From an uncultured virus (IMG/VR IMGVR_UViG_3300045016_000216) (lineage: Duplodnaviria > Heunggongvirae > Uroviricota > Caudoviricetes), in IMG/VR virus record IMGVR_UViG_3300045016_000216: DNA of 23,572 nucleotides; one strand, 5' to 3'. Of the stretch, positions 2,817-23,172 are shown piece after piece. The first letter of the stretch is position 1. Each line of letters begins with the position of its first letter. A model generated the notes under the pieces. That model did not search any database, was not told the origin of the DNA, and was given only the letters and a program-made list of their open reading frames with translations. The position numbers and the translations under genes were made by a program.

Positions 2817-3386
2817 TTATCCTTTCGAGATCCTTGCAAGGAATTCATCTTTACATCCCCCATCATTAGTCCTAAACAAACCTCTGGTAGCTATTGCTTC
2901 ATAGGGGGAATTGAATTTTTTCAATCCTCTCATCTCTTTGCAAAGATGTCTGGCACTCATTACAAGAATTTGACCTTGAGGTTTTAAGACTTCTTCAAAT
3001 TCATTTACAATTTGATTCACAAGTCTTTCAGCCACTTGAAGTCTGCCAGAATAATAATCTACCATTCTTCCTATTTTACTTGCTCCTAAAACTAATTGGT
3101 CAGGAATGTAAGAATAGTAGTATTCACCAAAGAAGGGAAGCATGTGGTGTTCACAAAGGGAGAAGAAGTAACCTTGATCTATGAGCATTTCATCATAAAG
3201 AATTCCATCTTCTCCATTTGGAACAGTCATGATCCTAGGTTTTTTGTCCTGTTGATACCCACAAAAAAGTTCCTCATACATTTCAGCCATCCTTTTTGGA
3301 GTATCAACAAGACCATTCCTGTTCAGATCCTCACCAATTTCCTTAAGAAAACCGGCAAATATTACCACCAAGGCATTTTTGTTCAT
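2817..3386 (-). CDS. folE: GTP cyclohydrolase I
   Basis: TPKR, SLCEHHMLPFFG, SKIGR, RLQVAERL, HLCKEMRG. Confidence 0.95.
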   Translation of the reverse strand: MNKNALVVIFAGFLKEIGEDLNRNGLVDTPKRMAEMYEELFCGYQQDKKPRIMTVPNGEDGILYDEMLIDQGYFFSLCEHHMLPFFGEYYYSYIPDQLVLGASKIGRMVDYYSGRLQVAERLVNQIVNEFEEVLKPQGQILVMSARHLCKEMRGLKKFNSPYEAIATRGLFRTNDGGCKDEFLARISKG

Positions 3387-4045
3387 TATTGAGCCTCAGC
3401 AGGAGCTTCAGCAGGAGCTTCAACAGGTTTAGGTTTAACAGGAGCCAATGTATCGAAACTCATAACTCCATCCCCATTGACAAGGATAAGTTTCTTGAAC
3501 CTGTCATATTTAGTTCCTAACTGATTGGGGTTTTTTCCATCTGCTAAAGCAGTAGCTGGAGTAAGTTTAGATCCTCCCCATTGTTCAAGATACATTTCCA
3601 CCAATTCTTTCTTGGTGTACTTAGCTTCAGCAATTTTGTTTTTTAGCCAAATTATCCTTTCTCCAGGACCTCTCTCTTTCTTTTCCTTGGGCTCTTTCGG
3701 AGGTTTAGGTTCTTTAGCTTTCTTTTCCTTTTTCGGAGCTTCAGCTTCTACCTTTTCTTGAGGTTCCGCAGCTTCTACTTTTTCTTTAGGTTCCGCAGGA
3801 GTAGATGGAGGAGCATCATCTGTACCATACATAAAATTCCACATATCAGCTACCATTTGAGGAATTTTGTCTGTCTTGTCTGGATGATTTTCAATCAAGT
3901 CATCCATCTTGTTGGTGAAGTCTTCGATTAGTTGTTCCTTAGTTTTCCCTACACTCTTGATTTTAGGATCAATAAGACCGGAATCGTTTAGGGATTTGAT
4001 TGCCTCTTTCAACTTTGTTAAGTCAATTAAACCAATTTCTTTCAT
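3386..4045 (-). CDS. Putative DNA-binding protein: SAP/Rho-N-like N-terminus, K/E/P/A-rich linker, shared C-terminal wHTH-like domain (paralog 1)
   Basis: RBS aaggagg. TAATG overlap with folE. C-terminal domain is about half identical by eye to that of 17173..17679. Confidence 0.6.
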   Translation of the reverse strand: MKEIGLIDLTKLKEAIKSLNDSGLIDPKIKSVGKTKEQLIEDFTNKMDDLIENHPDKTDKIPQMVADMWNFMYGTDDAPPSTPAEPKEKVEAAEPQEKVEAEAPKKEKKAKEPKPPKEPKEKKERGPGERIIWLKNKIAEAKYTKKELVEMYLEQWGGSKLTPATALADGKNPNQLGTKYDRFKKLILVNGDGVMSFDTLAPVKPKPVEAPAEAPAEAQ

Positions 4046-4097
4046 AAAGCCTCCTTGATTTTTTTTGTCTCTAAGGACATTTTTTTATTCTACTACT

Positions 4098-4134
4098 AAT
4101 ATAGCATATTTTTTGAAAAACCGAAAATTATTTT
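4098..4134 (-). promoter_or_regulatory. Putative class II (middle) promoter, copy 1
   Basis: AAAATAATTTTCGGTTTTTCAAAAAATATGCTATATT: extended -10 (TGnTATATT), no TTGACA. 31/37 ungapped identity with 13013..13049. Confidence 0.6.
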
Positions 4135-4163
4135 TCCTCGGAAATTCAAAAAATTTTTTTCCC

Positions 4164-4820
4164 TTATCTCTCATGTTTAGAACCTGACCAAAGATACTTG
4201 TGTAATGGAACATTTATTCCAAAATCAAACATTTTTATTTTTATTGCATCCTCAACTAGAGCTTGATCTGAATATTTAGGTTTAACTGCACTTAGGAAAA
4301 ATCTGGCTCTACACCCATAATCTATCAAACTCTTCCTCACCAATACAGCCTCAGCCAACTGTTTAAAATCTTCCACCGGAATTTTTACAAAATCATCTTT
4401 TGTTAAATTAGCAAAAGACCAATAATTCATCTTATTTTGGTAATCTAATTTATAATCCACAACCCAACATAAATCCTTAAACCATCTGAATATAGTAGGT
4501 ATAGGTTGAGTTCCATTAGTTTCCACACTTATTTTGTATTTAGCTGCGGAAAATCTATCAATTAAGGTGTATACTGCCCTTTCTTGCAGTAAAGGCTCTC
4601 CTCCAGTTATTGTGATTTTTTTACAGCCATAAAATTCTACTTGTCTAAAAATTTCCTCTACACTCATGTCCTTTCCAGAACTTTCTTCTTGGGCATATTT
4701 TGTGTCACAGTACCAGCACCTTAAATTACAATTTGAAAAACGTATGAAAGTGCTGAATGTTCCCTGTCCCCATAGATTACATTCCCCATCTATTGAGTGG
4801 AAAATACTGAAAATTTTCAT
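4164..4820 (-). CDS. queE: 7-carboxy-7-deazaguanine synthase (radical SAM)
   Basis: SIDGE, FIRFSNCNLRCWYCDT (CxxxCxxC), ITGGEP, ETNG. Confidence 0.95.
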   Translation of the reverse strand: MKIFSIFHSIDGECNLWGQGTFSTFIRFSNCNLRCWYCDTKYAQEESSGKDMSVEEIFRQVEFYGCKKITITGGEPLLQERAVYTLIDRFSAAKYKISVETNGTQPIPTIFRWFKDLCWVVDYKLDYQNKMNYWSFANLTKDDFVKIPVEDFKQLAEAVLVRKSLIDYGCRARFFLSAVKPKYSDQALVEDAIKIKMFDFGINVPLHKYLWSGSKHER

Positions 4821-5164
4821 TTTACCTCCAATTCAGCATAAGAATCGGGTGTTTCATACAACCTAAGCCTTTTTAGATCAGGTAGTAGGTTTTTAAGATC
4901 ATCAGCTATCCAAAATAATAAGTTTTCTGCTGTAGGGTTTTCTAGGATTTCATTTAACAAACAATGGTCTAATAATTGAATTATCCTACTATTTACTACT
5001 TCTTTCAGGTATGAGAAATCCATAACCATTCCTGTTAAAGGATTAACATGTCCCTCTACAACAACATCTAATCGGAATCTATGACCATGTAAAAATCTAC
5101 ATTTACCTTCATAATTCGGCAATTTATGTGCTGAATCAAAATAAAAAGTTTTAGCTATGATCAC
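4817..5164 (-). CDS. queD: 6-carboxytetrahydropterin synthase
   Basis: FDSAHKL, CRFLHGH, LDH, NPTAEN, YETP. Confidence 0.95.
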   Translation of the reverse strand: MIIAKTFYFDSAHKLPNYEGKCRFLHGHRFRLDVVVEGHVNPLTGMVMDFSYLKEVVNSRIIQLLDHCLLNEILENPTAENLLFWIADDLKNLLPDLKRLRLYETPDSYAELEVK

Positions 5165-5349
5165 TTCTTTACCCCTTTCTTTTTTGGTATATTTTCAAGT
5201 TCAAAAGGAAAAAAATATCGGGTAATATTTCTGGTATCTCTAACTTTATAAGTTTTATGTCCTGAATAACAAGAAGGTTTATCTAAAACTATTACCTTCT
5301 CTTTTGTCAATTTTACTCTGACAATTTCACCTTCACAAAATTCTTTCAT
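5161..5349 (-). CDS. Hypothetical protein (small SH3/KOW-like beta protein)
   Basis: Start/stop overlaps with both neighbours; F-x-x-G-E-I-V-R-V pattern. Confidence 0.55.
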   Translation of the reverse strand: MKEFCEGEIVRVKLTKEKVIVLDKPSCYSGHKTYKVRDTRNITRYFFPFELENIPKKKGVKK

Positions 5350-5546
5350 TTTCCTCTCCTTTTTTTAGAATAAGCCTTACATGAATGAATAATTTCTCTC
5401 TCCTGGGTAAATAAACGCCAACCTTTATCAGTTAGTTTCCAGTCAAAAGGACCTCTATGGCAGTATTTACAGAAGGTATCATGATCCGGACTGTTGAAAT
5501 CATCCCAATCAAAATCTTCATTTATCCAATCTGCCATATCCCCCAT
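5346..5546 (-). CDS. Hypothetical Cys/His zinc-binding phage protein
   Basis: CKYC...HSC; RBS ggag; coupled to neighbours. Confidence 0.6.
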   Translation of the reverse strand: MGDMADWINEDFDWDDFNSPDHDTFCKYCHRGPFDWKLTDKGWRLFTQEREIIHSCKAYSKKRRGK

Positions 5547-5737
5547 TATTTTTCTCCTTCCTTTGTTAGGATTGATATTTGCCCTGTTGCTAAAATAATA
5601 GCATTACCATTTTTGTCAAAAAAGAACCAAAGACCATCAGAATATTTGTAATTAGTTATCCTTTCAATCACTTTATTATGAATAATAACTCCATTAATAA
5701 TTAGGTCTTTTACGTCCACTAAGTCTCTTATCTCCAT
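5546..5737 (-). CDS. Hypothetical protein
   Basis: Start moved to ATG at 5737 (TAATG overlap with the helicase stop) instead of 5752. Confidence 0.55.
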   Translation of the reverse strand: MEIRDLVDVKDLIINGVIIHNKVIERITNYKYSDGLWFFFDKNGNAIILATGQISILTKEGEK

Positions 5738-7251
5738 TATGTAAAGTCCCATGTCCTTTCTGAGTCTAAATTAACTTGACCCAAGCTAAGTTGTTGTAAT
5801 ACTATGCAGTTTTCTTCCTCATTAAATTCCTTGTGTCTGTGACCTAATAATCCTATTCTGACCAAATGATGTCTTTTTTCCTCCTTTGTTTGGTTTATTG
5901 CTAAGAAAACATCAACATGACCTAAAATACCTATCCACTCAGACACACCTTCTTGATCCATCTGTTTCTTGTACAAAGCTCCTCTGTTAGCCTGCCATGC
6001 ACTAACTACTAAACAGTTCCTTTCTGAAGCTAATTGACCAAGAATCTTCCAAGTATCATCAATTTGTTCTCTTTTCTGCATTTTTGGATTTTCTGGTCTC
6101 AAAATACCAGCATAGTCAATTACAATAACATCTGGAATAAATTCATCATTTTGCTCTAAAAGATCCAAGTCCCTTTTTATGTCTTCTATATTTGCAGAAA
6201 ATTTAGGGTAACTCATAGCTCTGATATTTGAACCATATTGATATTTGAAGGATTTAATGTGATTTACAGTATTTGCCATAGTAAATTGAGGTCTTTCTAC
6301 AGCCTGAAACCATGTAGCTACCCTGTAATTTACTGTACCTCTGCACTCAGTACAAGGTCTGTAGGCTAAATCTTCAGAATAAGGGGGAATTTCTCCACTC
6401 TCTCCTATTAACCTCTCTCTGTTTTTTCTTCTAGGATCACCACATTCCCCTACTTGGTTGAAATGACAATCAAACACAGGGTAAATCCATTTAGTTGCCC
6501 CTTCTCCAAAAGCTGTCAATCTTTTATAAAATCTTGCGTTCATTGTTTCCTTATTCATTTCAAGGGATATAAATACTACTTTCAATCTCTGGAATAAAGC
6601 TAAAGTAGCAAGTTCTATCAGAACCCAGGTTTTCCCCCTTTTGAAGGCCCCCATCACCCCTATAACCCAACCTCTTTCCATAGGGCCTATCATTCTGCCC
6701 AGTTCCCCCGGAAATCTTAACAGTCCCTCTGGATTAGCATCAAAAACAGTCCTAACTTGTTTTTCATCAAATACATCATACCATCCTGTGGTAAGTTTTT
6801 CTACTTTTTTGTAGTTCCTTATTTGCTCCTCAGCCTCATCAACTTTACCTATTGATAATAATTTGGCAATATTATCCGCAATTATTTCAAGTTCTCTTTT
6901 TTTGAAATATTTTAGTGCGGAATCTAAAATATAATCTTCATTTATTCCTTGATCTTCCTCATACTGTTCTGATAAGTGAACAAGGAAAGCCTCTATGATG
7001 TCTGTTTCTTCCTGAGAAAGTTCACCTTTTTCAAGGTCAAAAATATTTTTTATGTTTGTTTTAGGAGATTTTCCATATTCCTCAAAGTATTGTAAACACC
7101 AATGACAGATTATTTTTACAAAACTGTTTTTTATGTAATTAGGATCATAGATTGGTAATATCTCCTGTAAAAATTTTTCAGAAATAATAGAAGCAGTGGC
7201 TATCTTTTTTTCTACGGTGACATCTAAATCCCTCTTTGCTAATATTGTCAT
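5737..7251 (-). CDS. dnaB: Replicative DnaB-like (SF4) helicase
   Basis: Walker A GAFKRGKT, ISLEM, Walker B VIVIDYA, SAWQANR. Confidence 0.88.
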   Translation of the reverse strand: MTILAKRDLDVTVEKKIATASIISEKFLQEILPIYDPNYIKNSFVKIICHWCLQYFEEYGKSPKTNIKNIFDLEKGELSQEETDIIEAFLVHLSEQYEEDQGINEDYILDSALKYFKKRELEIIADNIAKLLSIGKVDEAEEQIRNYKKVEKLTTGWYDVFDEKQVRTVFDANPEGLLRFPGELGRMIGPMERGWVIGVMGAFKRGKTWVLIELATLALFQRLKVVFISLEMNKETMNARFYKRLTAFGEGATKWIYPVFDCHFNQVGECGDPRRKNRERLIGESGEIPPYSEDLAYRPCTECRGTVNYRVATWFQAVERPQFTMANTVNHIKSFKYQYGSNIRAMSYPKFSANIEDIKRDLDLLEQNDEFIPDVIVIDYAGILRPENPKMQKREQIDDTWKILGQLASERNCLVVSAWQANRGALYKKQMDQEGVSEWIGILGHVDVFLAINQTKEEKRHHLVRIGLLGHRHKEFNEEENCIVLQQLSLGQVNLDSERTWDFT

Positions 7252-7874
7252 ATGGTTACCTCATTCAATACAGCAAATTCTCCATGTAATTCCTTAGCCT
7301 TTTCATTGTAAGCTAAAGCGGCTTCTTCTTTAGTAGAAAATGTCCCTATAAAAATAGGGATATAATCACACATTATAAAAGCTCCCCATTTTTTTATATC
7401 TTTGCAAAAGGAAACTCCCTTAAACCCTGATGTATTATTCTTTGAAATACCTCTATTTTTTATATTTTCCATTTGAGTGCAAATTCTTAAATTTTCTTTT
7501 CTGTTATCCAATTTATTTCTATTTTTATGATCCACTGTTGTTTCCTTTTCTTTGTGGAGATTCAGAATGAATTTTGTAAATGAAACAGGTCCTATTTCTT
7601 TGTTTGACATTACATATCCTGTATTTATTCTGTGCCATTTTATATTTTTAACCTTATTATAATCTTCCAAATCAAATATAGTTTCTGCAATTTCTTCACC
7701 TTTCCTATTATAAAGCTTCATCCTACAATGGTTATTATCAATGATAATTTCATTAGGATCAAATCTTGTCCTTTTAAGAATTTTTCCACATCTATTAATT
7801 TGCATATAATGGTTTACACACAATCCTTTTGCATAAAATTTGTTATTACACCCTTCAATGGAGCAAATTTTCAT
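7248..7874 (-). CDS. Free-standing HNH-AP2 homing endonuclease
   Basis: N-terminal CSIEGC...AKGLCVNHY; VDHKNRNKLDNRKENLR (HNH); NNTSGFKGVS...W.A.I...GTFSTKEEAALAYN...HGEFA (AP2). Confidence 0.9.
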   Translation of the reverse strand: MKICSIEGCNNKFYAKGLCVNHYMQINRCGKILKRTRFDPNEIIIDNNHCRMKLYNRKGEEIAETIFDLEDYNKVKNIKWHRINTGYVMSNKEIGPVSFTKFILNLHKEKETTVDHKNRNKLDNRKENLRICTQMENIKNRGISKNNTSGFKGVSFCKDIKKWGAFIMCDYIPIFIGTFSTKEEAALAYNEKAKELHGEFAVLNEVTI

Positions 7875-7903
7875 ATTTTCTACCTCTTATACAGGAATAG
7901 GTT

Positions 7904-8107
7904 TTAGAAACAAAGGTTAGGAGTTTTATAGAAGCTTTTATAATTATTAATAATCCTAAGTAATATAATCTTAAAAGGTATACCTTTAATATAGTTGGAG
8001 TCATAAACCGGTTTTATCTCCTGTAAGAATTTTTTGGATATAATGGCCGCAGTAGCAATTTTCTTTTCAATGGTAATATCAATATTCCTTTTTGCTAATA
8101 TTGTCAT
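7904..8107 (-). pseudogene. Truncated second copy of the DnaB-like helicase N-terminus
   Basis: MTILAKRNIDITIEKKIATAAIISKKFLQEIKPVYDSNYIK versus helicase MTILAKRDLDVTVEKKIATASIISEKFLQEILPIYDPNYIK. Confidence 0.85.
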
Positions 8108-8262
8108 TCACCTTTTTCCTCCTCTTTAGCAACAAATAACCTTTCCTCGCTTAGAAAATTCACTAAAAGATGAGTAGCTTTTGAGCCACATTTAGGACAA
8201 TCTTGATAAACATCTACCCATTCACAGTCTAGGCAAAGCCGTGCTTTTGATAGTTCCATCAT
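8104..8262 (-). CDS. Small zinc-ribbon protein (52 aa, not in ORF track)
   Basis: MMELSKARLCLDCEWVDVYQDCPKCGSKATH...; ATGA overlaps at both ends. Confidence 0.7.
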   Translation of the reverse strand: MMELSKARLCLDCEWVDVYQDCPKCGSKATHLLVNFLSEERLFVAKEEEKGE

Positions 8263-10146: not shown

Positions 10147-11034
10147 TCACAAAAACAAATCCGATCTGAGTTTTTTTACATCTTCCTCAGACAAATCAGC
10201 AGGATCACCTTCCGACAAAGTTAAAATTTCTACCTCTTTTACAATGGCTGAAAGATCATAAGCCAATTTATCAGCTTCTTTTTGGGCATCACTATCATAA
10301 AGGATAAAGGCTCTTTTTATTCCAGAAAAATGTACCAACTGATTTTTTGTGTACTTTTTACCAAATGTAGCTACTGCACCCTCTCCTATTCTCCATACAT
10401 CAGTAACACCTTCAACAATAACCACATTGTTTCTTACCGAATCTAGGTTATAAACTGCTGACTTTATGGGTATTACTGATTCTTCCACAGGTGCATTTTT
10501 ATAAGGTTCTTTTAATCCTTCAAAAATAGACCTTGCTAAGAAAGTTACCAATCTATTGTGAAGATAAACAGGTACTATTATTCTAAATTTGTAATCTCCA
10601 ACCTCTGCACAACCAAGCAAATCATATTTCTTTTCTAGGTAATCTGGATCAAATTTTCTTTTTATCAGATAATTTCTGTGCATTGATTGTAAAGGTGTTG
10701 CTAGGCTTGGTAACTTTACAAGATCAGAGGTTCTTCTTTCTTTCGGTACTTTTATGTTCCTATCTTGGTATTTATCTACAATTTTTTGAGCATAATTATA
10801 GGAACATTTCTCAACCTCTTGGATGTATTTTAGAACTGTTCCCTTAACGGAACATTTCCAACAAGATATTAATTTATCCGGAGAAATGCCCAGGTGTCGG
10901 GAAGGATCTGGACAAAATGGACAGTTAACTTCGACCCATCCTAGTGTTGTGTTTTTCCCCTCTGTTTGATAGTCTATCCTTTTATCCTCTAAATATCTTA
11001 TTATATCAAAATTTTGTAGTGGAAAACTTACCAT
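10147..11034 (-). CDS. DnaG-type DNA primase (zinc finger + TOPRIM)
   Basis: CPFC...H...CWKC; RIIVPV; IVEGVTD; LYDSD; GDPAD. Confidence 0.9.
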   Translation of the reverse strand: MVSFPLQNFDIIRYLEDKRIDYQTEGKNTTLGWVEVNCPFCPDPSRHLGISPDKLISCWKCSVKGTVLKYIQEVEKCSYNYAQKIVDKYQDRNIKVPKERRTSDLVKLPSLATPLQSMHRNYLIKRKFDPDYLEKKYDLLGCAEVGDYKFRIIVPVYLHNRLVTFLARSIFEGLKEPYKNAPVEESVIPIKSAVYNLDSVRNNVVIVEGVTDVWRIGEGAVATFGKKYTKNQLVHFSGIKRAFILYDSDAQKEADKLAYDLSAIVKEVEILTLSEGDPADLSEEDVKKLRSDLFL

Positions 11035-11620
11035 ATTGCTCTTTTTCCCCGATTATCCTTGCTTTTATAGCTTCTTCCTTAGAGTTAAAATATCCTAAAT
11101 GAATATGTTTCTTGTTTTTCCATAAACAAGCTGTCCATTTATTCGTTCTCTTATTAAGTCCTACTCCTTTATGCCCAGAAGTGTTGTTTGACGGGACTTT
11201 CCTATTTCTATTATTTTCTGAATAGGTAGATTCCCTTATATTTTTTCTCCTATTATCCCAAGGTTTTCTATTTTTATGATCAGGAAACTTATTTGCGGGT
11301 ATTTCCAATAAATAACGGGCCATATCCATACCTTTGTTATAAGATATTGTGTAACCTTTATAATCTTTCCACCACACTATGTCTTTCACCTTCTCATAAT
11401 CCTCAAAATCAAAATAAGTTTCTCCCACTTCTTCCCCTTCTATATTATAGAGTTTCATAATGCAGAAAAATCTACCAAAAATTATTTCATTCTTTTCCTT
11501 TATTATTCTATTTTTTATTCTTCCTTGATTTCTCATTTGAAAATAATGTCTGTGACAATATCCTTTTGCTAAGTGAGGAATTTGACAGTTTTCTATTTGA
11601 CATTTTTTTATTTTTCTCAT
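11006..11620 (-). CDS. Free-standing HNH-AP2 homing endonuclease (paralog of 7248..7874)
   Basis: CQIENC...AKGYCHRHY; PDHKNRKPWDNRRKNIR; NNTSGHKGV...HLGYFNSKEEAIKAR. Confidence 0.9.
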   Translation of the reverse strand: MRKIKKCQIENCQIPHLAKGYCHRHYFQMRNQGRIKNRIIKEKNEIIFGRFFCIMKLYNIEGEEVGETYFDFEDYEKVKDIVWWKDYKGYTISYNKGMDMARYLLEIPANKFPDHKNRKPWDNRRKNIRESTYSENNRNRKVPSNNTSGHKGVGLNKRTNKWTACLWKNKKHIHLGYFNSKEEAIKARIIGEKEQYGKFSTTKF

Positions 11621-11659: not shown

Positions 11660-13003
11660 TCATAACCATCCTTCCTCGAAATAAAGACATAATCGGGTAC
11701 CAAAATGATCTACGAGGTAATAATGGCTAGGATCAAAGAAATCTATCAGGATAACCTCTTTTTTATCCTGAGTTGTCCTTAATCCTCTCCCTATGCTTTG
11801 CAGGGTAGCAATTTCAGACTTTCCTCCTGCGGCATTACATATTACATTTAAGGAAGGAATGTTTACTCCCTCTTTAAATACCACAGTAGCAATTACAAGT
11901 TTAATATCCTTGTTTTTAAAGGCTGATTTTATATCCTCTCTTTGTTCTGATTCGGTAGACCCTTGAACAAAATAAGGCTGTAGGCCTTTTTCTCTAGCTA
12001 TTCTTTTCAGGTTTTCCCCATGTTCTATTCTGGTTAGTAAAATCAGGACAGTTTTTCCCTCATCAATGTAAGGTTTTACCGTATTAATTACAGTTTCATT
12101 CCTTAATCTGTTATTAACAACTCCAGCATCATAAACATCTTGGTATCTTGTCAATTCCTTTACTCTGTAATTAATCGGAATCTTTATTAATTTTATGATT
12201 GGTTTAGCTAAAACCCCTTGACTGATACCTTCTTCTAAAGTGAAGGTATCAAGGTTAGGTCCAAGCAATCCCTCTATTGTCATTTTTGCTTCCTCAGTTG
12301 TCGGTAAAGTTGCAGTAAGTCCTATTCTTACTGTACAAGGTAATCTTCTTAGGACCCTAGCATAAGTTCCTGTGAAGGTGCTTATATGGTGACATTCATC
12401 AACTACCGCAACATCAAATTTTGATAGTAGGTGTGGTACTTTGTGAAAGGATTGTATTGTACCTACTACAATGTCACCTGATAAATCTTTCTCCTCACCT
12501 GTGTAGGAAGTAATGTTTTTCAGCCCAAACCTTTTGAATTCTTCCGCAGTTTGTCTAACCAAAGTTAGGGTGTGAACAATGAAAATTGTAGGTTTTCTGA
12601 ATGAATGGATTATGGACGCTGCTAAAACTGTTTTTCCTGTTCCCGTAGCTGCTTGTATTGTCCCTCTTTGCCCATCTAAAATGGACTGTACAAGTCTGAC
12701 TTGATCACCCCTAAGAGTGATGGGTTGAGGATAAACAGGAAGTTTAGGAATTGTCCCTTCTATAAAACAAGGAATTCCTCTACTTGCTAGTACACTTTTA
12801 ATCCTGTCCAAAAATCCTGTGTAGAAATAATAAATTGACCCATCTTTTGATTTGGTCATAGTAGATTTTTGGTATTCTACTCTCTCCTTTTTGTACAAAC
12901 CATCTCTGTAGAATACTGCTGGAAAAGATAGGATCGGTCTTATTATTCCTGCATCTCTAGCCGAGACTACACTTTCTACTGGATCTATTATTTTTATCAA
13001 CAT
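11660..13003 (-). CDS. Superfamily 2 DNA helicase (UvsW/XPB-like)
   Basis: LRGDQ, AATGTGKT, VVDECHH, GLTAT, EGVNIP, QSIGRGLR. Confidence 0.92.
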   Translation of the reverse strand: MLIKIIDPVESVVSARDAGIIRPILSFPAVFYRDGLYKKERVEYQKSTMTKSKDGSIYYFYTGFLDRIKSVLASRGIPCFIEGTIPKLPVYPQPITLRGDQVRLVQSILDGQRGTIQAATGTGKTVLAASIIHSFRKPTIFIVHTLTLVRQTAEEFKRFGLKNITSYTGEEKDLSGDIVVGTIQSFHKVPHLLSKFDVAVVDECHHISTFTGTYARVLRRLPCTVRIGLTATLPTTEEAKMTIEGLLGPNLDTFTLEEGISQGVLAKPIIKLIKIPINYRVKELTRYQDVYDAGVVNNRLRNETVINTVKPYIDEGKTVLILLTRIEHGENLKRIAREKGLQPYFVQGSTESEQREDIKSAFKNKDIKLVIATVVFKEGVNIPSLNVICNAAGGKSEIATLQSIGRGLRTTQDKKEVILIDFFDPSHYYLVDHFGTRLCLYFEEGWL

Positions 13004-13012
13004 TATGCTTAT

Positions 13013-13049
13013 ATTATATCATACTTTTCAAAAAACTGAAAATTATTTT
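13013..13049 (-). promoter_or_regulatory. Putative class II (middle) promoter, copy 2
   Basis: AAAATAATTTTCAGTTTTTTGAAAAGTATGATATAAT: TGnTATAAT, no TTGACA; only 9 nt from the helicase ATG. Confidence 0.65.
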
Positions 13050-15580: not shown

Positions 15581-15609
15581 ATTATATCACTTTTTATATA
15601 ATTTGTCAA
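15581..15609 (-). promoter_or_regulatory. Consensus sigma70 early promoter
   Basis: TTGACA-17-TATAAT with TG extension. Confidence 0.9.
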
Positions 15610-16257: not shown

Positions 16258-16260
16258 TTT

Positions 16261-16992: not shown

Positions 16993-17176
16993 GGTATCCT
17001 CCTTTTTGTTCAAATTCTAAAGGATCTACTTTTATTATACCTTGTTCATCCTCAATCACTTTTATACCGTGATCTACCTCCAGATGAGATAGGTGAAACA
17101 TAACTATCTCATCTGGATTATCTGTGAGGACACATGCCCGACAAATAGATGATTGGGGGTCAAAGCAGTCCCTCAT
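16982..17176 (-). CDS. Hypothetical protein with CFDPxSxxCxxC motif
   Basis: ATGA overlap; motif shared with the upstream gene. Confidence 0.6.
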   Translation of the reverse strand: MRDCFDPQSSICRACVLTDNPDEIVMFHLSHLEVDHGIKVIEDEQGIIKVDPLEFEQKGGYHGR

Positions 17177-17679
17177 GAGGCAAATCCTAAAACTTTACCC
17201 GTTTGAACAATGACTCTGCCGAAGGGATTGTAACGAGTTCCTAATTGTTTAGGATTCTTTCCATCAGATAGCAGAGTTTTAGGAGTTAGAGGAGATCCTC
17301 CCCACTTCTCTACATACATGTCCACAATCTGATCTCTTGTATAACATCCTTCCTCGATCAAATTTTCCATGTATCTGATCTTTTCCCCTTTTTTCCCTGG
17401 AACTTTTGTTCTTATCTCTGCGGTTTTCTTTGCCTCTCTCCTTGCTGCTTTGCTCGTAGTTCCTGATTTGCAGATTTCCCCTAGTTCAGGAAAATCTTCG
17501 CAACAGGAATTACAAGAATCCGAATTAGGATCAAAACAGCCGTAGATTCCTTTTGTCCATAAAGCCCGCAGTTCTTCGCAAGCTTCAGCGGGACATTCTT
17601 TAGAGGCTTCTTCAACGTGGATTTCTTCTTTGGTGGGTTCTTCAACGGGGGTTTCAGTTTGATGTTTCTTTTTACTCAT
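17173..17679 (-). CDS. Cys-rich N-terminus plus shared wHTH-like C-terminal domain (paralog 2)
   Basis: First gene after promoter 17719-17747; WGGSPLTPKTLLSDGKNPKQLGTRY. Confidence 0.65.
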   Translation of the reverse strand: MSKKKHQTETPVEEPTKEEIHVEEASKECPAEACEELRALWTKGIYGCFDPNSDSCNSCCEDFPELGEICKSGTTSKAARREAKKTAEIRTKVPGKKGEKIRYMENLIEEGCYTRDQIVDMYVEKWGGSPLTPKTLLSDGKNPKQLGTRYNPFGRVIVQTGKVLGFAS

Positions 17680-17718
17680 GGTAATTCTCCTTTCTTTTCT
17701 TTTTGATTTTATAAAAAC

Positions 17719-17747
17719 ATTATATCACAACCGATAGATAATGTCAA
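17719..17747 (-). promoter_or_regulatory. Consensus sigma70 early promoter
   Basis: TTGACA-17-TATAAT with TG extension; inside a 55-bp exact repeat (17700-17754 = 18988-19042). Confidence 0.92.
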
Positions 17748-17790
17748 GAGAAAATTATGCTCCAGTGCATTTTTTTAAGGTATGTTTTTA

Positions 17791-18192
17791 TCATGTTTTT
17801 ATGTTTCTCCATCTCACCAATTTTTCTAATTTTATGCTTCCAAACAATACTGTCCCTCTTGGGGGTTTGTAAAAAGGTTTATGTTTGCCTTCATAGAAAT
17901 CCTTAAAATCATCAATTCTTGAAGGAACAAAATTGGGCAATATTTTCCTATCATATCCTTTTACCTTAAATACTCTATCCCCTCTTCCAGACCGCATGAA
18001 AATTAAAGCTCCTTCTAGGCTATTGAAGCAGAATACTCCTAAAGTCCAGGGTTTTGCTTTGGTTATTTTTCCTTTTTCATACCATAGGGTATAATTTGCA
18101 TCATCAGAGTAATTTCCTTTATAAGCAAAGGCACTAAAATACTTTTGTTTGTCCTCTCTCCCGCGACAGGAATTTACCACTTTATAAAACAT
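17791..18192 (-). CDS. Hypothetical phage protein
   Basis: RBS aaaggag; 133 aa. Confidence 0.65.
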   Translation of the reverse strand: MFYKVVNSCRGREDKQKYFSAFAYKGNYSDDANYTLWYEKGKITKAKPWTLGVFCFNSLEGALIFMRSGRGDRVFKVKGYDRKILPNFVPSRIDDFKDFYEGKHKPFYKPPRGTVLFGSIKLEKLVRWRNIKT

Positions 18193-18207
18193 AGGTTTCT
18201 CCTTTCT

Positions 18208-18402
18208 TTATTTTCTTAACCAATCCCTTAAAACTCGGAAAAGAATGTCCACCTGATCGTATGTTAAGGAAATATGGTCAGTTTCAGGTGTGAAAAGTTG
18301 TATCATTTTTCCATTGATTTTTCCACCATAGAATGAGGTTACATACAAATTCCTTTCCCGTTCCCCATACCTTTCTGTTATTTCAAGTAATCTTTCGGAC
18401 AT
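18208..18402 (-). CDS. Hypothetical phage protein
   Basis: RBS aaaggag. Confidence 0.65.
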   Translation of the reverse strand: MSERLLEITERYGERERNLYVTSFYGGKINGKMIQLFTPETDHISLTYDQVDILFRVLRDWLRK

Positions 18403-18416
18403 TTTTTCTCCTTTCT

Positions 18417-18656
18417 TTATGTTACTTCATGAATGGGAATTCCTTTCATTGAAGGTCTCCTTAACCAAATTTTTAACAATTCATAACTTTCCCAATCTAC
18501 CATAAAAGTCCCGTTTTCTAGATAAACAACCATAGCCCCTCTTCCATATGATCTTTGGGAAATATGAATTTTGATCACTTCCTCTGTGTGTCTTAATAAC
18601 CATCCCAAATTTTTTATTTTTTTGCCTGGTTTTCCTTCTCTAAAAAGCATAGGCAT
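18417..18656 (-). CDS. Hypothetical phage protein
   Basis: RBS aaggag. Confidence 0.65.
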   Translation of the reverse strand: MPMLFREGKPGKKIKNLGWLLRHTEEVIKIHISQRSYGRGAMVVYLENGTFMVDWESYELLKIWLRRPSMKGIPIHEVT

Positions 18657-18753
18657 TACTATTCTCCTTATTGTAGAATATCATAAAGATATTCCTTAAT
18701 GTCTTGCCTTTTTCCGAAATTTCCCGTTATCGCTATTTTTAATCCTAATCCTC

Positions 18754-18858
18754 CTATGGAATAGCTCTATAAGCTAATTCGATCACAATCCCCCAAAAAG
18801 CAAAGAGGGAAATCCAAATGATCGGCCAACATATCCATCTGAAAGTTAAGTCTTTCAT
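18754..18858 (-). CDS. 34-aa membrane peptide overlapping 18767..18976 (not in ORF track)
   Basis: aaggagg...ATG; MKDLTFRWICWPIIWISLFAFWGIVIELAYRAIP. Confidence 0.5.
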   Translation of the reverse strand: MKDLTFRWICWPIIWISLFAFWGIVIELAYRAIP

Positions 18859-18976
18859 TCCTTTTCCTCCTTATTAATAATAGTAAATGGGCTTTTCTTT
18901 TTCGTTGACAAAATGGGCATTGATACTCATCTTCATCCATTACCACATCTAAGCATTTAGGACAAAGTTTAAGCAT
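18767..18976 (-). CDS. Small zinc-ribbon protein
   Basis: CPKC...CPFC; ggaggag RBS; first gene after a promoter. Confidence 0.55.
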   Translation of the reverse strand: MLKLCPKCLDVVMDEDEYQCPFCQRKRKAHLLLLIRRKRNERLNFQMDMLADHLDFPLCFLGDCDRISL

Positions 18977-19006
18977 CTTCTCCTCCTTTTTTGATTTTAT
19001 AAAAAC

Positions 19007-19035
19007 ATTATATCACAACCGATAGATAATGTCAA
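19007..19035 (-). promoter_or_regulatory. Consensus sigma70 early promoter
   Basis: TTGACA-17-TATAAT with TG extension. Confidence 0.92.
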
Positions 19036-19063
19036 GAGAAAAACTTCATTCCATAAAAATAGT

Positions 19064-19357
19064 TTAGGAGAAATAAGTTCCTATCATGTACTGTTCTCCA
19101 TCCTCGGACAGTCTGATAACTACTCCAGAAAAATAAGTATCCGAAGAATAACCATGCCACCCTTTTAAATCGGAGTTATGTTCAACCCGTAAAAAATCTA
19201 ATAGGGAATAAGCCCAGTTTCTATAAATTAGGAAACATCCTACCTCATACTCTTCATCATTCATCCAGTCAAATTCTTTCCTCCACTTTTTGGGCAATTC
19301 ATACCCATACTTGAAGTTCTTCCACTTGCGATCTGTTTTTATAATAATGTCGGCCAT
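19064..19357 (-). CDS. Hypothetical aromatic-rich early phage protein
   Basis: RBS aagga; WHGYSSDTYFSGVVI motif. Confidence 0.7.
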   Translation of the reverse strand: MADIIIKTDRKWKNFKYGYELPKKWRKEFDWMNDEEYEVGCFLIYRNWAYSLLDFLRVEHNSDLKGWHGYSSDTYFSGVVIRLSEDGEQYMIGTYFS

Positions 19358-19376
19358 TGTTCCTTACTCCTTTCTT

Positions 19377-19433
19377 TTAGTCTTTTAACTTGGAGCAGAA
19401 GCTATAAGTTTCTGCTCCAAGTTAAAAGACTAA
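19377..19433. repeat. Perfect 24-bp inverted repeat with 9-nt loop
   Basis: ttagtcttttaacttggagcagaa / ttctgctccaagttaaaagactaa. Confidence 0.95.
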
Positions 19434-19645
19434 CTTAGCAACCACTTCTGTGCTTCTTCTTCATTGGTAAAAAGGGTCTGATGACATTTTGGACATGCGA
19501 TTTCTATATTCCCTTCTACTGAGAAATCCACTTCATCATATTGGATTTCCCCATCTTCTCCTACATACATTCTGAAGTGTTTCCACCCTTGATCGAATTC
19601 ATTCACATAATCAATTTTTTGGTTACATTTAAAACAAGTTTTCAT
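19430..19645 (-). CDS. Zinc-ribbon hypothetical protein
   Basis: CFKC...CPKC; ggagg RBS. Confidence 0.7.
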   Translation of the reverse strand: MKTCFKCNQKIDYVNEFDQGWKHFRMYVGEDGEIQYDEVDFSVEGNIEIACPKCHQTLFTNEEEAQKWLLS

Positions 19646-19866
19646 ATCTTCCTCCTTTGGTCGATATAAGAGTAAGAATCATCATCTTGCCAAGCTGCTC
19701 TCCAAACACATTCTAAACCCCATCCGTTTACATCTTTCCAAGTTACAAAATACTTGTAGCCTTTCCTCAGATAGAATTTCAAAGCTTTTGACCTGTCCCA
19801 AGTAGTTTCGTACAGTCTCCAGATAGTCGGATTTTCTGTCTTTTTCTCCTGAATTATTTTTATCAT
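19642..19866 (-). CDS. Hypothetical protein
   Basis: aggagg RBS; ATGA overlap. Confidence 0.65.
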   Translation of the reverse strand: MIKIIQEKKTENPTIWRLYETTWDRSKALKFYLRKGYKYFVTWKDVNGWGLECVWRAAWQDDDSYSYIDQRRKI

Positions 19867-19892
19867 ACTTTTCCTCCTAATGGAAAGATTCT

Positions 19893-20162
19893 CTATCTGT
19901 TAAGTTTTAACAGATTCCAAACAGAAGATGATCCCAAGAATTTAAGCACTGCTCTATCTCTTACTCCTATTTTGTGAAAATAAAGATCTTTTTCCAACTC
20001 TTCCTTGTTATAGGCGAAAGATGAGTATTTGTAATCCTTGTTTCCAGTTCTAAATAAAACCGTTATACTATCTCCACATTCACAAGTATAAATGTCCGCC
20101 ATTCTCCCTAACTTTGAGTGGAGAATACATCTGGTGCAGGCATGCTTAAAGTTTGGTTTCAT
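19893..20162 (-). CDS. Hypothetical Cys/His protein flanked by 28-bp direct repeats
   Basis: HACTRC...CEC; aggagg RBS. Confidence 0.65.
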   Translation of the reverse strand: MKPNFKHACTRCILHSKLGRMADIYTCECGDSITVLFRTGNKDYKYSSFAYNKEELEKDLYFHKIGVRDRAVLKFLGSSSVWNLLKLNR

Positions 20163-20344
20163 ACTTTTCCTCCTAATGGAAAGATTAGTTTCTGCCTTAT
20201 TCCATTCTTATTGATTAAGTGGACTTCTACCTGTGCCCAATCATCAAAAGATAAAGGCGAATAAATTTTGTAATTCCACTCATCCCACTTCTTGTACTCT
20301 TGCGGGAACTTCTCTTTGATCTTATCTTCTAAATTTGGAATCAT
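20159..20344 (-). CDS. Hypothetical protein
   Basis: ggaggag RBS; ATGA overlaps. Confidence 0.6.
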   Translation of the reverse strand: MIPNLEDKIKEKFPQEYKKWDEWNYKIYSPLSFDDWAQVEVHLINKNGIRQKLIFPLGGKV

Positions 20345-20667
20345 AGTTCTCCTCCATTATTCATCATGATTTCCCGAATTTTAGCACTCTCCATCATTCT
20401 CTCGAACGTTTCCCGATCCTTCTTATTGAATCCTGTCTTGTAATGATAGAAAGAACTCCATAGTTTCAAGCATGGTGTTTTTCTTCTTGGTCTTGTGGGA
20501 TGTTCTATAAAATCACCATCTTCTGTGAAAATGAGATTTGGTCCAAAGTCAAAATAGTATTTCCTTTTTCCTGTTACTTCATCAAACGCCACGATTTGTA
20601 CGCCTTTAAAGTACCCGAATCCGTAATCTTTGCCAATGTATGATTCTGCTTTAAATCTTGTTCCCAT
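20341..20667 (-). CDS. Hypothetical protein
   Basis: aaagga RBS. Confidence 0.65.
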   Translation of the reverse strand: MGTRFKAESYIGKDYGFGYFKGVQIVAFDEVTGKRKYYFDFGPNLIFTEDGDFIEHPTRPRRKTPCLKLWSSFYHYKTGFNKKDRETFERMMESAKIREIMMNNGGEL

Positions 20668-20699
20668 AGTTTAGTTCCTTTCTGTTATTGATCTGCATA

Positions 20700-20954
20700 T
20701 CATTTCTTTGCCCCATACTTTACGAGCATAACAGCTTGAATGGGATTATAGTTGCAGTATTTTTGGAGCATTGAGATCAACTCATCATCCCATTTGCTCT
20801 CATTGAATGGTGCATCTTTTATGTAATGGAATTTAGACATTCTTGGTTTTTCTTTAGACTTGAAATTTGGTGGTGGGATTAAGTTTCTTTGATGATTTGG
20901 CTTGTTGTATCTGAATAAACGCTTGGAACTAATTTCTGCTTGGAAGTAAAACAT
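20700..20954 (-). CDS. Hypothetical protein
   Basis: First ORF after promoter 21002-21030; start uncertain. Confidence 0.5.
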   Translation of the reverse strand: MFYFQAEISSKRLFRYNKPNHQRNLIPPPNFKSKEKPRMSKFHYIKDAPFNESKWDDELISMLQKYCNYNPIQAVMLVKYGAKK

Positions 20955-21001
20955 CGTGATCTCACTTTCTTTTTTTGGAATTTTTCGATTTTCATAGTAG
21001 T

Positions 21002-21030
21002 ATTATATCACATTATATAGATAATGTCAA
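21002..21030 (-). promoter_or_regulatory. Consensus sigma70 early promoter
   Basis: TTGACA-17-TATAAT with TG extension; upstream flank similar to the 17719 promoter. Confidence 0.9.
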
Positions 21031-21066
21031 TAGAAAATTATGTTCCAGAAATTATTTTTTCGGTTT

Positions 21067-21417
21067 TTAGAATCTTCTAAACTGGACAAACTCAAAGATG
21101 GAAGTCTTTACGCCATCTTTCTCTAAAGATTTTCGTTGTGTAGTGGAATGGACACATCTTTGCCTTCCCAAGAGAACTACTAAAGCGAAGATAAAGCCAG
21201 TCTCTCCCATCACGTGAAACACATCTTCGGCAGACGCATTTATGATTTCTGGATTAGATTGGCAGAATGTCTTCGCCAGATTCTCCATTTCTACATCGTT
21301 AATGTGGGGATCAACGTTTGGGAAAGGTACATCTACCACTTCCCCAAACTTCTGAGCTTCTTCCAGTTGCTTTTTGCCCCACTGAGAAGTTGGATGATTG
21401 GAAATGTTGAAAAACAT
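21067..21417 (-). CDS. Csx20/Csx15-like CRISPR ring-nuclease family protein, phage-encoded
   Basis: FFNISNHPTSQW...Q...DVPFPNVDP...HVMGE...STTQR...KTSIFEFVQFRRF matches the remembered pattern of type III CRISPR ancillary Csx20-like proteins. Start MFFNI after gaaaggag. Confidence 0.65.
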   Translation of the reverse strand: MFFNISNHPTSQWGKKQLEEAQKFGEVVDVPFPNVDPHINDVEMENLAKTFCQSNPEIINASAEDVFHVMGETGFIFALVVLLGRQRCVHSTTQRKSLEKDGVKTSIFEFVQFRRF

Positions 21418-21431
21418 GTGAAACGCTCCTT

Positions 21432-21659
21432 TCATTTTATTTGGTAAAAGTCAGTGCCATTGATCTCATAAGCTTTTTCGAAAGTGCAGGGATAAAAGAT
21501 TGCTTTCTCACAAGTGCCAAGAGCAGATTCGAGTACCACGGACTGCTCGTTGACAAACCCATCAACAGATGAATGATGGAGTCTAAACATCTTGCCATCA
21601 TCATCTTTGAAGATGGAGTCAAGCTCTCTACTCCATCCTGCCACAGTTTTAACTTTCAT
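21432..21659 (-). CDS. Hypothetical protein, first gene of the leftward early operon
   Basis: gaaaggag RBS. Confidence 0.65.
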   Translation of the reverse strand: MKVKTVAGWSRELDSIFKDDDGKMFRLHHSSVDGFVNEQSVVLESALGTCEKAIFYPCTFEKAYEINGTDFYQIK

Positions 21660-21742
21660 AAGAACGCTCCTTTCTTTGGGTTTTGGAAGAAATCTCCCGC
21701 AAAATTGTTAAAAATCACTTTTTGTAGAAAAGTCTCTCAAAC

Positions 21743-21914
21743 TGTCAAAATCTTGACATGTCAAAAAAATGACATGTCAAAAAATTGACAGTAAAAAATA
21801 TTTACAAGTCAAAGAGCAATGTAAAAAATGTTTACACGTGTAAAAAATGTTTACAGTCAAATAAATGACAGTAAAGATTGTTTACAAGTCAACTGCTATC
21901 AAAAGAATAGCAGT
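21743..21914. repeat. Tandem array of palindromic operator-like boxes
   Basis: WGTCAA-N4-WTGACA at 21743, 21759, 21775 and 21855; WGTAAA-N5-TTTACA at 21790, 21820, 21839 and 21870; actgctat-N7-atagcagt at 21892. Confidence 0.85.
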
Positions 21915-21943
21915 AGTATAGCATAAAGACAGAAAAAAGTCAA
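21915..21943 (-). promoter_or_regulatory. sigma70 promoter for the first early operon
   Basis: TTGACT-17-TATACT with TG extension. Confidence 0.75.
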
Positions 21944-21958
21944 GCTTAAAATCAAAAT

Positions 21959-22219
21959 TTGGTATATACTTTGCATACTGTAAACTAAGTTCACAGTATT
22001 ACAAAATTGTAAGATTACAAAATTGTATAGTCAAAGGCTATAAAACTGCTATGCAATCTATATGCCAAATTACAAAATTGTAAAACTGTGAACTAAGTTC
22101 ACACTACAAAATTGTATAGTCAAAGGCTATAAAACTGCTATGCAATCTATATGCCAAATTACAAAATTGTAGTAAGAAAAAATTGGCCCTAAAATTGCTA
22201 TATGCAAGTTCTATACCAA
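21959..22219. promoter_or_regulatory. Cluster of seven sigma54-type (-24/-12) GG-N10-GC elements
   Basis: Plus strand: TTGGTATATACTTTGCA (21959), AAGGCTATAAAACTGCT (22034, 22123), TTGGCCCTAAAATTGCT (22183). Minus strand: TTGGCATATAGATTGCA (22052-22068, 22141-22157), TTGGTATAGAACTTGCA (22203-22219). Confidence 0.7.
22016..22171. repeat. 67-bp exact direct repeat, 2 copies, period 89
   Basis: 22016-22082 = 22105-22171; each copy is bounded by TACAAAATTGTA. Confidence 0.95.
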
Positions 22220-22441
22220 GTATAGATAAAGCAAATAAAACGGATATAAGAAAGTCAAGGGGAAAAACCTGATATAATAAAATCAATAGATTGTATATAC
22301 CCTTGATTATAACCCTAACAAAAAAAGATAATGTCTCATATTGTAAATATGGAATAATGATTAAAATACTAATGATAAAAACAAGTTAAGGCATAGATAG
22401 ACTAATGAAGTAAAAAAAATATATAAATGATAAAAAAAAGC

Positions 22442-22471
22442 TTGACAAAGTCTATGAAAAGAATATATGTT
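22442..22471 (+). promoter_or_regulatory. Rightward sigma70-type promoter
   Basis: TTGACA-18-TATGTT with an A-rich UP region. Confidence 0.5.
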
Positions 22472-22512
22472 GAAACTAAAAACTCAAAACTCAAAATTAA
22501 GGAGTATAAAAA

Positions 22513-22644
22513 ATGGAAATGTACTATTGCGTGAGAGTCTCGGTATATATTAAGAAAATTGGAATTTCCCCACATACAGCTTATCTGATAGTTGATACTT
22601 TACCATCTATCATTAGAAGCAAAATCCTTGCTTGCTTTCGATAA
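22513..22644 (+). CDS. Hypothetical protein (43 aa, not in ORF track)
   Basis: taaggag RBS; MEMYYCVRVSVYIKKIGISPH... Confidence 0.55.
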   Translation: MEMYYCVRVSVYIKKIGISPHTAYLIVDTLPSIIRSKILACFR

Positions 22645-22743
22645 TTGATTTTAACCCATGTTAGGTTAATCCCATACCGGAAAGGGATTAGGGCTCCAAC
22701 CCTTGATAATTGGTATATACCATCAAAAAGGAAGGAAAAGACC

Positions 22744-23172
22744 ATGATGAAGAAAACAGAGGTTATTAAAATGGACTATACCCAAAAAGAAATTATCCAA
22801 CTTATCCAAGGGGAAAAACCTGTGCAGGTGGTCCCCGTGTGGGAGATGAAAAACATAGATCACGAAACAAGGGTTAAGGAAAAACGGGTGTCCCAGGAAT
22901 ATGCTCCACCAAAGGTCGTGGGGGACACCAAAAAAGAGAGGATCGGATATCTTTTTGATAAAATTGCGAAGGGAGAATATACCCGCAACGACCTTGCTTC
23001 CTTGGTGTCTTCGGTATACCCCATTAAACCGAGTACCACAAAAACAGAATTAAGCGATCTTAAAAACCAGAGTTTCAAAGGGAGTAAATACGCTCCTTAT
23101 TGGCCGGAGAAATGGGTAGGGTATATGGTTATTGAGGTTAATAAGATCTTCTCTCTCAAAAAGCTTGTATAG
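22744..23172 (+). CDS. Protein with divergent shared wHTH-like domain (paralog 3)
   Basis: aaggaagga RBS before ATG 22744; ERIGYLFDKIAKGEYTRNDL...TTKTELSDLKN...GSKY. Confidence 0.65.
   Translation: MMKKTEVIKMDYTQKEIIQLIQGEKPVQVVPVWEMKNIDHETRVKEKRVSQEYAPPKVVGDTKKERIGYLFDKIAKGEYTRNDLASLVSSVYPIKPSTTKTELSDLKNQSFKGSKYAPYWPEKWVGYMVIEVNKIFSLKKLV

Follow-up and report, generated by a model that had tools for sequence, protein, structure and literature searches.

What could a phage gain by ending three otherwise unrelated proteins with one and the same small domain, and by having one of the three genes lie within a cluster for the 7-deazaguanine modification of DNA? This question is raised by a stretch of 23,572 nucleotides (hereafter "the window") from the uncultured virus IMGVR_UViG_3300045016_000216 (Caudoviricetes). 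The window corresponds, in reverse orientation, to bases 1-23,572 of a viral record of 39,692 bases that is estimated to be 40% complete, and the three dispersed genes are here called A (protein P0002), B (P0003) and C (P0001). Sequence comparison and structure prediction identify their common C-terminal region as a winged helix-turn-helix domain of a family that had no name, and the explanation that we prefer, and regard as probable on balance, is that this domain constitutes a common C-terminal anchoring or "address" module, most likely DNA-binding, mounted on three different heads.

Three proteins with a common C-terminal domain

The original prediction quoted three peptides, all of which are found where it had placed them, the first two encoded on the minus strand and the third on the plus strand. 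Pairwise BLASTP comparison of the whole proteins aligns P0002 with P0003 (51% identity across 70 amino acids, E 1e-24), P0003 with P0001 (30% identity across 76 amino acids, E 2e-9) and P0002 with P0001 (34% identity across 83 amino acids, E 3e-7); by this measure the similarity among the three C-terminal domains far exceeds chance, and the claim that a domain of ~70 amino acids is common to three dispersed genes is borne out. The alignable part is restricted to the C-terminal ~70 residues, the N-terminal parts being unalignable, in agreement with the further claim that the three heads are unrelated. A six-frame profile search of the entire 39,692-base record returned exactly three copies of the domain, namely those already known. 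Genes A and B are 72% identical across 90 nucleotides and their domains pair together in the domain tree (support 81/93), and all three window copies have, after the K-N-P sequence, a 5-residue insertion that is rare (found in 3 of 140 aligned rows).

Gene A (3386..4045, minus strand), the copy inside the que cluster, specifies a protein of 219 amino acids that consists of an N-terminal domain (residues 1-80; 3806..4045), a Lys/Glu/Pro-rich linker of low complexity (3671..3805) whose DNA contains coding tandem repeats of 27 bp and 10 bp, the winged-helix domain (residues 126-200; 3446..3670), in which helix 1, a short strand, helix 2, helix 3, the conserved loop and a beta-hairpin follow one another, and a short Pro/Ala/Glu tail. 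The N-terminal domain displays the motif LKxAxxxLN...VGxxKE...F...P..V..YN and is common to the proteins that occupy the same slot in related phages, whatever their C-terminal domain. Gene B (17173..17679, minus strand; 168 amino acids) combines the winged-helix domain, delimited by profile search (residues 96-168; 17176..17394), with a Cys-rich head having seven Cys within residues 29-70 (17470..17595); this segment, which is found again in P0004 and in the B-type proteins that relatives encode, is probably zinc-binding. Gene C (22744..23172, plus strand) specifies 142 amino acids if translated from the ATG at 22744 and 175 if translated from a TTG at 22645, with a short basic head preceding a divergent winged-helix domain that was likewise recognized by profile search (residues 61-142; 22924..23169).

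A previously unnamed winged-helix family

Neither the three proteins nor their domains are matched in Pfam or in PHROGs. A profile made from the three domains and searched against 1.84 billion cluster representatives retrieved 187 proteins at E ≤ 1e-3 (two of the listed relatives, P0012 and P0112, being repeat artefacts), and in 137 of the 152 stored proteins the domain ends ≤10 residues from the C-terminus. The family consensus is ER..FL..LI..GKYTKKELIEK...KFP..S.ST..T.L[ST]DGKNPKYNKF..LVV.D..G.LSF., with I13, T40, D44, K46, N47, K54, Y55, F58 and F72 kept in >90% of the rows, and the median net charge of the domain is +4. Lys/Glu/Pro-rich linkers are frequent among the family proteins, and the domain is also found fused to DNA-acting enzymes, namely an SprT-like protein (P0039) and an HerA/FtsK-like ATPase (P0118).

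From an alignment of 140 rows AlphaFold2 produced a model having a predicted local distance difference test score (pLDDT) of 92.0 and a predicted template modeling score (pTM) of 0.79, whose helices (H) and strands (E) are H2-14, E19, H20-31, H36-45, E62-64 and E69-72, with a long loop between the third helix and the beta-hairpin; the same order of elements was obtained, weakly (pLDDT 59.7), from an alignment of three rows. The best 50 structural matches returned by VIA are winged helices in all cases (Z 7.6-6.1, the alignments covering 55-64 of the 75 residues at 2.0-3.0 Å) and include MecI (7.6), the retron Ec86 effector (7.4) and the SAMD1 WH (7.2), as well as cullin WHB, ArgR, Fur, MarR and Z-alpha. 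Since the 50 best matches are all of this kind, the domain is a winged helix for which no particular solved family stands out; on the strength of the model, the ~70-amino acid region is a winged helix-turn-helix domain family not named before.

The winged helices of MecI/BlaI, of the ArgR/AhrC N-terminal domain, of Fur, MarR, PadR, SAMD1 and KAT6A have the same topology and size as the domain, and the top Foldseek rows, weak as they are, consist mostly of winged helix-turn-helix proteins of the same kind. Unlike these known winged helices, the domain matches no Pfam, PHROG or PDB family in sequence (sequence searches of the PDB yielded only designed coiled coils, which are spurious) and possesses two traits of its own, namely a long and almost unvarying loop (D-G-K-N-P-K-Y-N-K-F) that connects helix 3 to the hairpin and a C-terminal placement behind varied heads.

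The original prediction had likened the fold to HARE-HTH (PF05066; the N-terminal domain of RpoE, the RNA polymerase delta subunit), which is a small winged helix too and has been proposed to be a reader of modified DNA. As an assignment of fold this was correct at the superfamily level, given the pLDDT of the model and the nature of its structural matches; membership in HARE-HTH, on the other hand, is not upheld. PF05066, whose cut-off for a match is 25.9 bits, matched neither the three proteins and their domains at E ≤ 10 nor any of 145 relatives at E ≤ 0.01, nor was there a match at E ≤ 10 in the six frames of the 39,692-base record; a model of RpoE-delta (9a6y_A) ranked 41st in Foldseek (E 3.3, TMq 0.43) and is absent from the 50 listed VIA rows. 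Weak matches to DUF7669 (PF24706) occur in 13 of the 145 relatives, P0094 alone being above the cut-off (24.3 vs 23 bits); they span the first two helices and the beginning of the third and cover only profile positions ~6-47 of 75. None of the three window copies is matched by DUF7669, which is named in no paper of the literature searched. The winged helix of Cac1_C weakly matches 6 of the 145 relatives.

The domain is encoded by no isolate phage among 50,697 phage records, in which no match was found either by tblastn with P0003, P0026 and P0021 or by megablast with 12 kb of the window. The matches in the ESM Atlas are unnamed viral clusters only, and a word-index search returned a single relative of P0003, namely P0004, which has only the head in common with it, and five unnamed proteins for P0002.

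Conservation of the three copies in relatives

A motif scan of viral contigs identified 19 contigs encoding the domain, among which L013, L014, L016 and L017 are near-identical and L004 and L012 are one and the same contig. In 18 of the 19 the gene lies inside the que cluster; 17 of these cases are seen in the table of open reading frames (ORFs), and in L020, where the gene was not called as an ORF, a tblastn match is found between QueE and QueC. The usual order is primase, DnaB, QueD, QueE, X, QueC, FolE, DpdA, X being the winged-helix gene, and is replaced in L018 by QueE, FolE, X, QueC. The nineteenth contig (L024) contains two copies without que genes, and its complete record holds a third copy beside QueC. 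Among 52 metagenome loci, 50 of which are informative, the gene is directly beside a que gene in 31 and is not so in the other 19, in some of which it is located at a divergent junction with terminase and portal genes. In two loci (L071, 902-1771; L073, 5101-5970) the winged-helix protein is followed by a 289-amino acid protein with a weak match to sigma-70 region 2 (24.7 bits, cut-off 24); the L073 cluster has a FolE2-type cyclohydrolase, after which the winged-helix gene is located.

Searches of whole records revealed three copies of the domain in the near-complete relatives G001, G003 and G004, two in G002 and one in G005 and G055. In G003 and G004 the copies are carried by head types A, B and C, as in the window, and the corresponding domains form three supported orthologue pairs in the domain tree. 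As in the window, the gene for the B-type protein of both genomes immediately precedes one of DUF2786/DUF7168, and a DUF932 gene is found a few kb away at most, the order of the two differing in G003. Downstream of the B-type protein, a pentapeptide-repeat protein (Pfam E 2.6e-58) is encoded between the DUF2786/DUF7168 and DUF932 genes of G004 (L035, 9335-10249) and is absent there in the window.

Protein A and the slot after DnaB

The claim that one copy lies inside the 7-deazaguanine cluster is confirmed, since 3386-4045 falls between QueE and FolE. According to Pfam, upstream of A are QueE (4164-4820), QueD (4817-5164) and a DnaB-like helicase (5737-7251), with three small ORFs also present in 4164..7251, and downstream, in the unit led by A, are FolE (2817-3386), Gat-QueC (1476-2813) and a DpdA-like transglycosylase with a LAGLIDADG intein (2-1486), which runs off the window; all these genes are on the minus strand. 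The window thus contains the FolE, QueD, QueE, Gat-QueC and DpdA-like genes of the phage 7-deazaguanine (dpdA/que) modification clusters, with A among them. The full DpdA-like gene is present in L090 (9256-11073), where it specifies 605 amino acids with a LAGLIDADG-type intein, compared to ~270-370 amino acids for orthologues without it. An HNH-AP2 homing-endonuclease gene (7248-7874) lies just upstream of the DnaB-like gene, a second one being found at 11006-11620, and beyond the former a 67-amino acid ORF (7904-8107) repeats the DnaB N-terminus (123 nucleotides, 76% identical), so that the 7129-8107 region looks like the scar of an endonuclease insertion.

A search anchored on the DnaB-like protein, whose matches in isolate phages are distant (≤35% identity), yielded 463 relatives, of which 80 loci were kept. 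The slot following QueE is nearly always occupied by a protein of 150-250 amino acids having the N-terminal domain of P0002 and a charged linker. Among the loci with ≥4 kb of sequence after DnaB (37 que-positive and 31 que-negative), a protein with this N-terminal domain is present in 33 of the former and in 19 of the latter, where it directly follows DnaB; because the family thus occurs also without que genes, A belongs, as far as gene order can tell, to a replication-module family that is not que-specific and has que genes around it.

In the alignment of the slot proteins L12, N20, F43 and N70 of the N-terminal domain are nearly invariant. This domain has no match in Pfam, and the "SAP/Rho-N-like" label that had been given to the head of A is not supported: SAP (PF02037) and Rho_N (PF07498) matched 0 of 23 members at E ≤ 10, P0002 itself has no match to either, and the sub-threshold matches seen in one relative (P0128) concern the middle part of the protein.

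Beside this conserved N-terminal domain, the C-terminal domains of the slot proteins are distributed over at least 20 BLAST clusters. One of these, type 3 (GPGVI..SIL..FPDR), is remotely homologous to the winged helix (hhalign probability 71%, E 3.8e-5, with 58 columns aligned in register); type 1 (RYGH..VRSHI.HL), tried in the same way, was rejected (hhalign probability 2.8%). The other types have no Pfam match above cut-off in 27 of 27 representatives. Swapping extends to B, P0004 consisting of a B head with an RYGH-like C-terminal type, and in G006 and G007 the C-terminus of the B-type protein is homologous to that of the slot protein of the same genome (BLASTP 4e-7 and 4e-6). Two slot proteins (L128, 16024-16752; L154, 8153-8866) have the B-type Cys-rich segment inside their linker, which indicates that a single protein can unite the A head with the B head.

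Association with the 7-deazaguanine genes

The original prediction had proposed that co-occurrence with dpdA/gat-queC be examined across phages, and the outcome is twofold. On the one hand, the winged-helix type was encountered in no phages other than que-positive ones: the 19 contigs identified by motif are que-positive without exception, the type occurs in 0 of 28 QueD-negative whole records, eight of which are ≥90% complete, and in the DnaB-anchored sample it is present in 5 of the 37 que-positive and in 0 of the 31 que-negative loci. On the other hand, the protein family of A is also found after DnaB in 19 of the 31 que-negative loci, and in 32 of the 37 que-positive loci the slot protein has other C-terminal types. 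In a FastTree phylogeny of DnaB (90 rows), some "que-negative" tips of which are short loci, que status changes at least 11 times and the winged-helix type appears in at least five separate places, all que-positive. More generally, the C-terminal types are nearly partitioned, types 0, 1, 2, 4 and 7 occurring only with que genes, types 5, 6 and 8 only without them and type 3 alone being mixed (4 to 1).

Two considerations bear on the meaning of this association. With its gene inside the cluster, the type of A and the que genes are inherited together, so that the association may be a matter of linkage; the copies in B and C are 12-22 kb away from the cluster. Furthermore, the domain adjoins both short QueC genes (~225-260 amino acids) and long genes of Gat-QueC size (400-455 amino acids), as deduced from their lengths, and is therefore not tied to one particular derivative. 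Passages of Hutinet et al. (2019, 2023) describe genes of unknown function in the 7-deazaguanine clusters of other phages and mention no winged-helix, helix-turn-helix or DNA-binding cluster member, such as their supplementary tables may list. For phage 9g, Hutinet et al. (2019) report a reconstitution of the kind in which modified DNA is produced in E. coli that carries the modification genes.

What the common domain may do

In the reading that we consider on balance probable, that of a C-terminal address module, the module is carried by three different heads. Protein A, with its conserved N-terminal domain and charged linker, belongs to the replication module, in which its gene follows that of a DnaB-like helicase in a large group of uncultured phages; in the que-positive members the que genes flank it, and in the window A heads the folE, gat-queC, dpdA unit. 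Protein B contributes a Cys-rich, probably zinc-binding head, its gene being the one that directly follows a consensus early promoter, and C is a short basic protein encoded close to the end of the record. With one binding module in A, B and C, the same phage-DNA target is to be expected for all three, approached at different times or with different partners. DNA binding, the common target and any tie to the control of replication or transcription are what we infer.

The arrangement of A, whose gene adjoins that of the helicase and in which a conserved part is followed by a domain of DNA-binding type that varies among phages, is reminiscent of the lambda O N-terminal domain and of the C-terminal winged helix of P4 alpha, which provide phage replication proteins with origin binding or specificity; the likeness is one of arrangement and no homology is claimed. 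Near the A gene there are no non-coding iterons, the only tandem repeats being coding ones, and, unlike in lambda O and P4 alpha, the domain of A is present also on two proteins outside the replication module.

Several observations weigh against an address module that binds DNA. The best VIA Z of 7.6 is at the level of a common fold only, values below 8 being common, and Foldseek gave no match at E ≤ 1e-3 against PDB and BFVD. Helix 3 has small or polar residues and a conserved Asp, and the most conserved polar residues (D44, K46, N47, K54, Y55 and N56) are located in the loop that follows it, a situation unusual for a base-reading recognition helix and equally fitting for a conserved site for a protein or ligand. 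A k-mer contrast between six genomes with the domain and six without revealed AT-rich words and differences in composition only, with no shared DNA motif; the GC ranges of genomes with and without the domain overlap. As the other C-terminal types have no Pfam match, the DNA-binding label extended to them is one that we infer. Finally, the RYGH type is present in G010 in protein B and in one further protein but not in A, which is of another type, G055 has a single copy of the domain, and in G008, G049 and G051 no paralogue of the C-terminus of A was seen. A rule by which one type would be present in all three proteins of a genome was rejected as universal, since G010 and G055 break it and no such sharing was observed in G008, G049 or G051; same-type sharing does hold in G000, G001, G003 and G004, in G002 for its two copies and in G006 and G007 for A and B, so that in view of these exceptions it is common within a genome without being the rule.

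Two other explanations are to be considered. The domain might be a protein-binding winged helix that docks the three heads on one conserved protein, be it a hub of the phage, e.g., the helicase/primase or DpdA, or a machine of the host, e.g., its RNA polymerase, which we judge to be unlikely. The winged helices of cullin WHB, Rpa2, Stn1 and MCM bind proteins, and such domains are found among the best structural matches (cullin WHB Z 7.1, Stn1 7.0, APC2 7.0, Rpa2 6.8, MCM C-terminus 6.7); the most conserved residues form a patch in the loop instead of being aligned along the recognition helix, and the tendency of a domain type to recur in the paralogues of one genome is what co-evolution with one partner predicts. 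The net positive charge of the domain and its fusions to SprT-like and HerA/FtsK-like DNA enzymes argue against docking. Alternatively, the loop K-N-P-K-Y-N-K-F might recognize phage DNA containing dG+ or dPreQ0 and steer the three heads away from host DNA, and this we hold to be doubtful. A nearly invariant loop of polar and aromatic residues does suggest a constant ligand, and a reader of this sort would account for the restriction of the winged-helix type to que-positive phages, in the contigs and whole records as well as in the DnaB-anchored loci, for its multiple que-positive places in a tree in which que status changes repeatedly, for the near-partition of the C-terminal types and for the persistence of the protein in the cluster despite shuffled gene order (L018, L058, L073 and the window). 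However, the physical location of A within the cluster offers linkage as an explanation of the association, the same protein family follows DnaB in que-negative loci, the domain is found beside genes of both QueC sizes, its remote homologue type 3 occurs with and without que genes, most que-positive relatives have other C-terminal types, and the sequence has no match to HARE-HTH. There is equally little probability in the related view that in this group of phages A, B and C have address domains selected to match the chemistry of the DNA of the phage itself, the K-N-P-K-Y-N-K-F winged helix being specialized for 7-deazaguanine-substituted DNA.

The three proteins could also be independent of one another, the domain being a generic, non-specific DNA-binding or architectural module that was copied by duplication or gene conversion, comparable in this respect to histone H1, in which a winged helix is combined with a Lys-rich tail. 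The nucleotide identity of A and B, their pairing in the tree and the shared 5-residue insertion fit recent copying or conversion, and the Lys/Glu/Pro-rich linkers frequent in the family are in line with such a module. Yet the A, B and C copies of G003 and G004 are three well-supported orthologue pairs, which implies that the three have been kept apart for a long time, and each head type has its own conserved neighborhood; ordinary paralogy is the most improbable of these explanations.

Promoters and other features of the window

The original prediction had placed the three copies behind different promoters and, insofar as this was checked, their promoter contexts do differ. Gene B is, by sequence match, the leading gene of a unit with a consensus early promoter, a perfect sigma-70-type match (12/12; TTGACA-17-TATAAT with an upstream TG) at 17719..17747 on the minus strand, 40 nucleotides ahead of its start. 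Upstream of A, at 4087..4141 (minus strand), are a terminator-like hairpin (4141-4121) following queE and a TGnTATATT element, and a stretch of 48 nucleotides is 79% identical to 13002-13049, upstream of an SF2 helicase gene. For gene C, on the plus strand, the best promoter match is only 10/12 (22442-22471), with a 43-amino acid ORF intervening.

The B promoter is one of four perfect 12/12 sigma-70-type matches with a TG extension on the minus strand (15581-15609, 17719-17747, 19007-19035 and 21002-21030), which have 55-75 nucleotides of surrounding sequence in common; their likeness suggests that a cassette with a strong early promoter has been repeated.

Flanked on one side by the beginning of the leftward early operon (21659) and on the other by the gene C region is a dense, head-to-tail array of palindromes with a period of 16 bp (21743-21890), comprising three exact TGTCA-N6-TGACA units (0.10 expected by chance) and about five variants, e.g., TGTAAAAAATGTTTACA; to judge from its layout it looks like an operator or iteron array. 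Considered as a candidate binding site of the domain, it is not repeated elsewhere, a TGTCA-N6-TGACA array being found in 0 of 5 genomes with the domain and in 0 of 5 without it, and no similar palindrome array was found in the matching regions of G003 and G004. The non-coding DNA between the array and gene C contains two perfect direct repeats of 67 nucleotides (22016-22082 and 22105-22171), 89 nucleotides apart, and beyond C an 18-bp tandem repeat is present in 8.1 perfect copies (23428-23572), whose minus-strand translation would be (PGQATG)n and inside which the record ends.

Implications

The analysis newly defines a hitherto unannotated family of winged helices, whose ~190 sequence clusters come exclusively from uncultured viruses and metagenomes, a modular replication-module protein with an exchangeable C-terminal domain that changes between phages and a set of three proteins with a domain in common, the domain type being correlated with the presence of the que cluster. 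If this correlation reflects linkage only, what is gained is still a useful annotation, namely a new domain of DNA-binding type and, for several hundred viral contigs, a conserved gene that follows DnaB.

In 7-deazaguanine the N7 of guanine is replaced, which lies in the major groove, the side from which DNA is read by many proteins, and to our knowledge little work has been devoted to how phages with 7-deazaguanine genomes ensure that their own DNA-binding proteins still function. The idea that the domain reads modified DNA survives here as a minority hypothesis of low probability; if address domains suited to the modification were a reality, a phage could guide its proteins for replication and early control onto its own modified DNA and keep them off that of the host.

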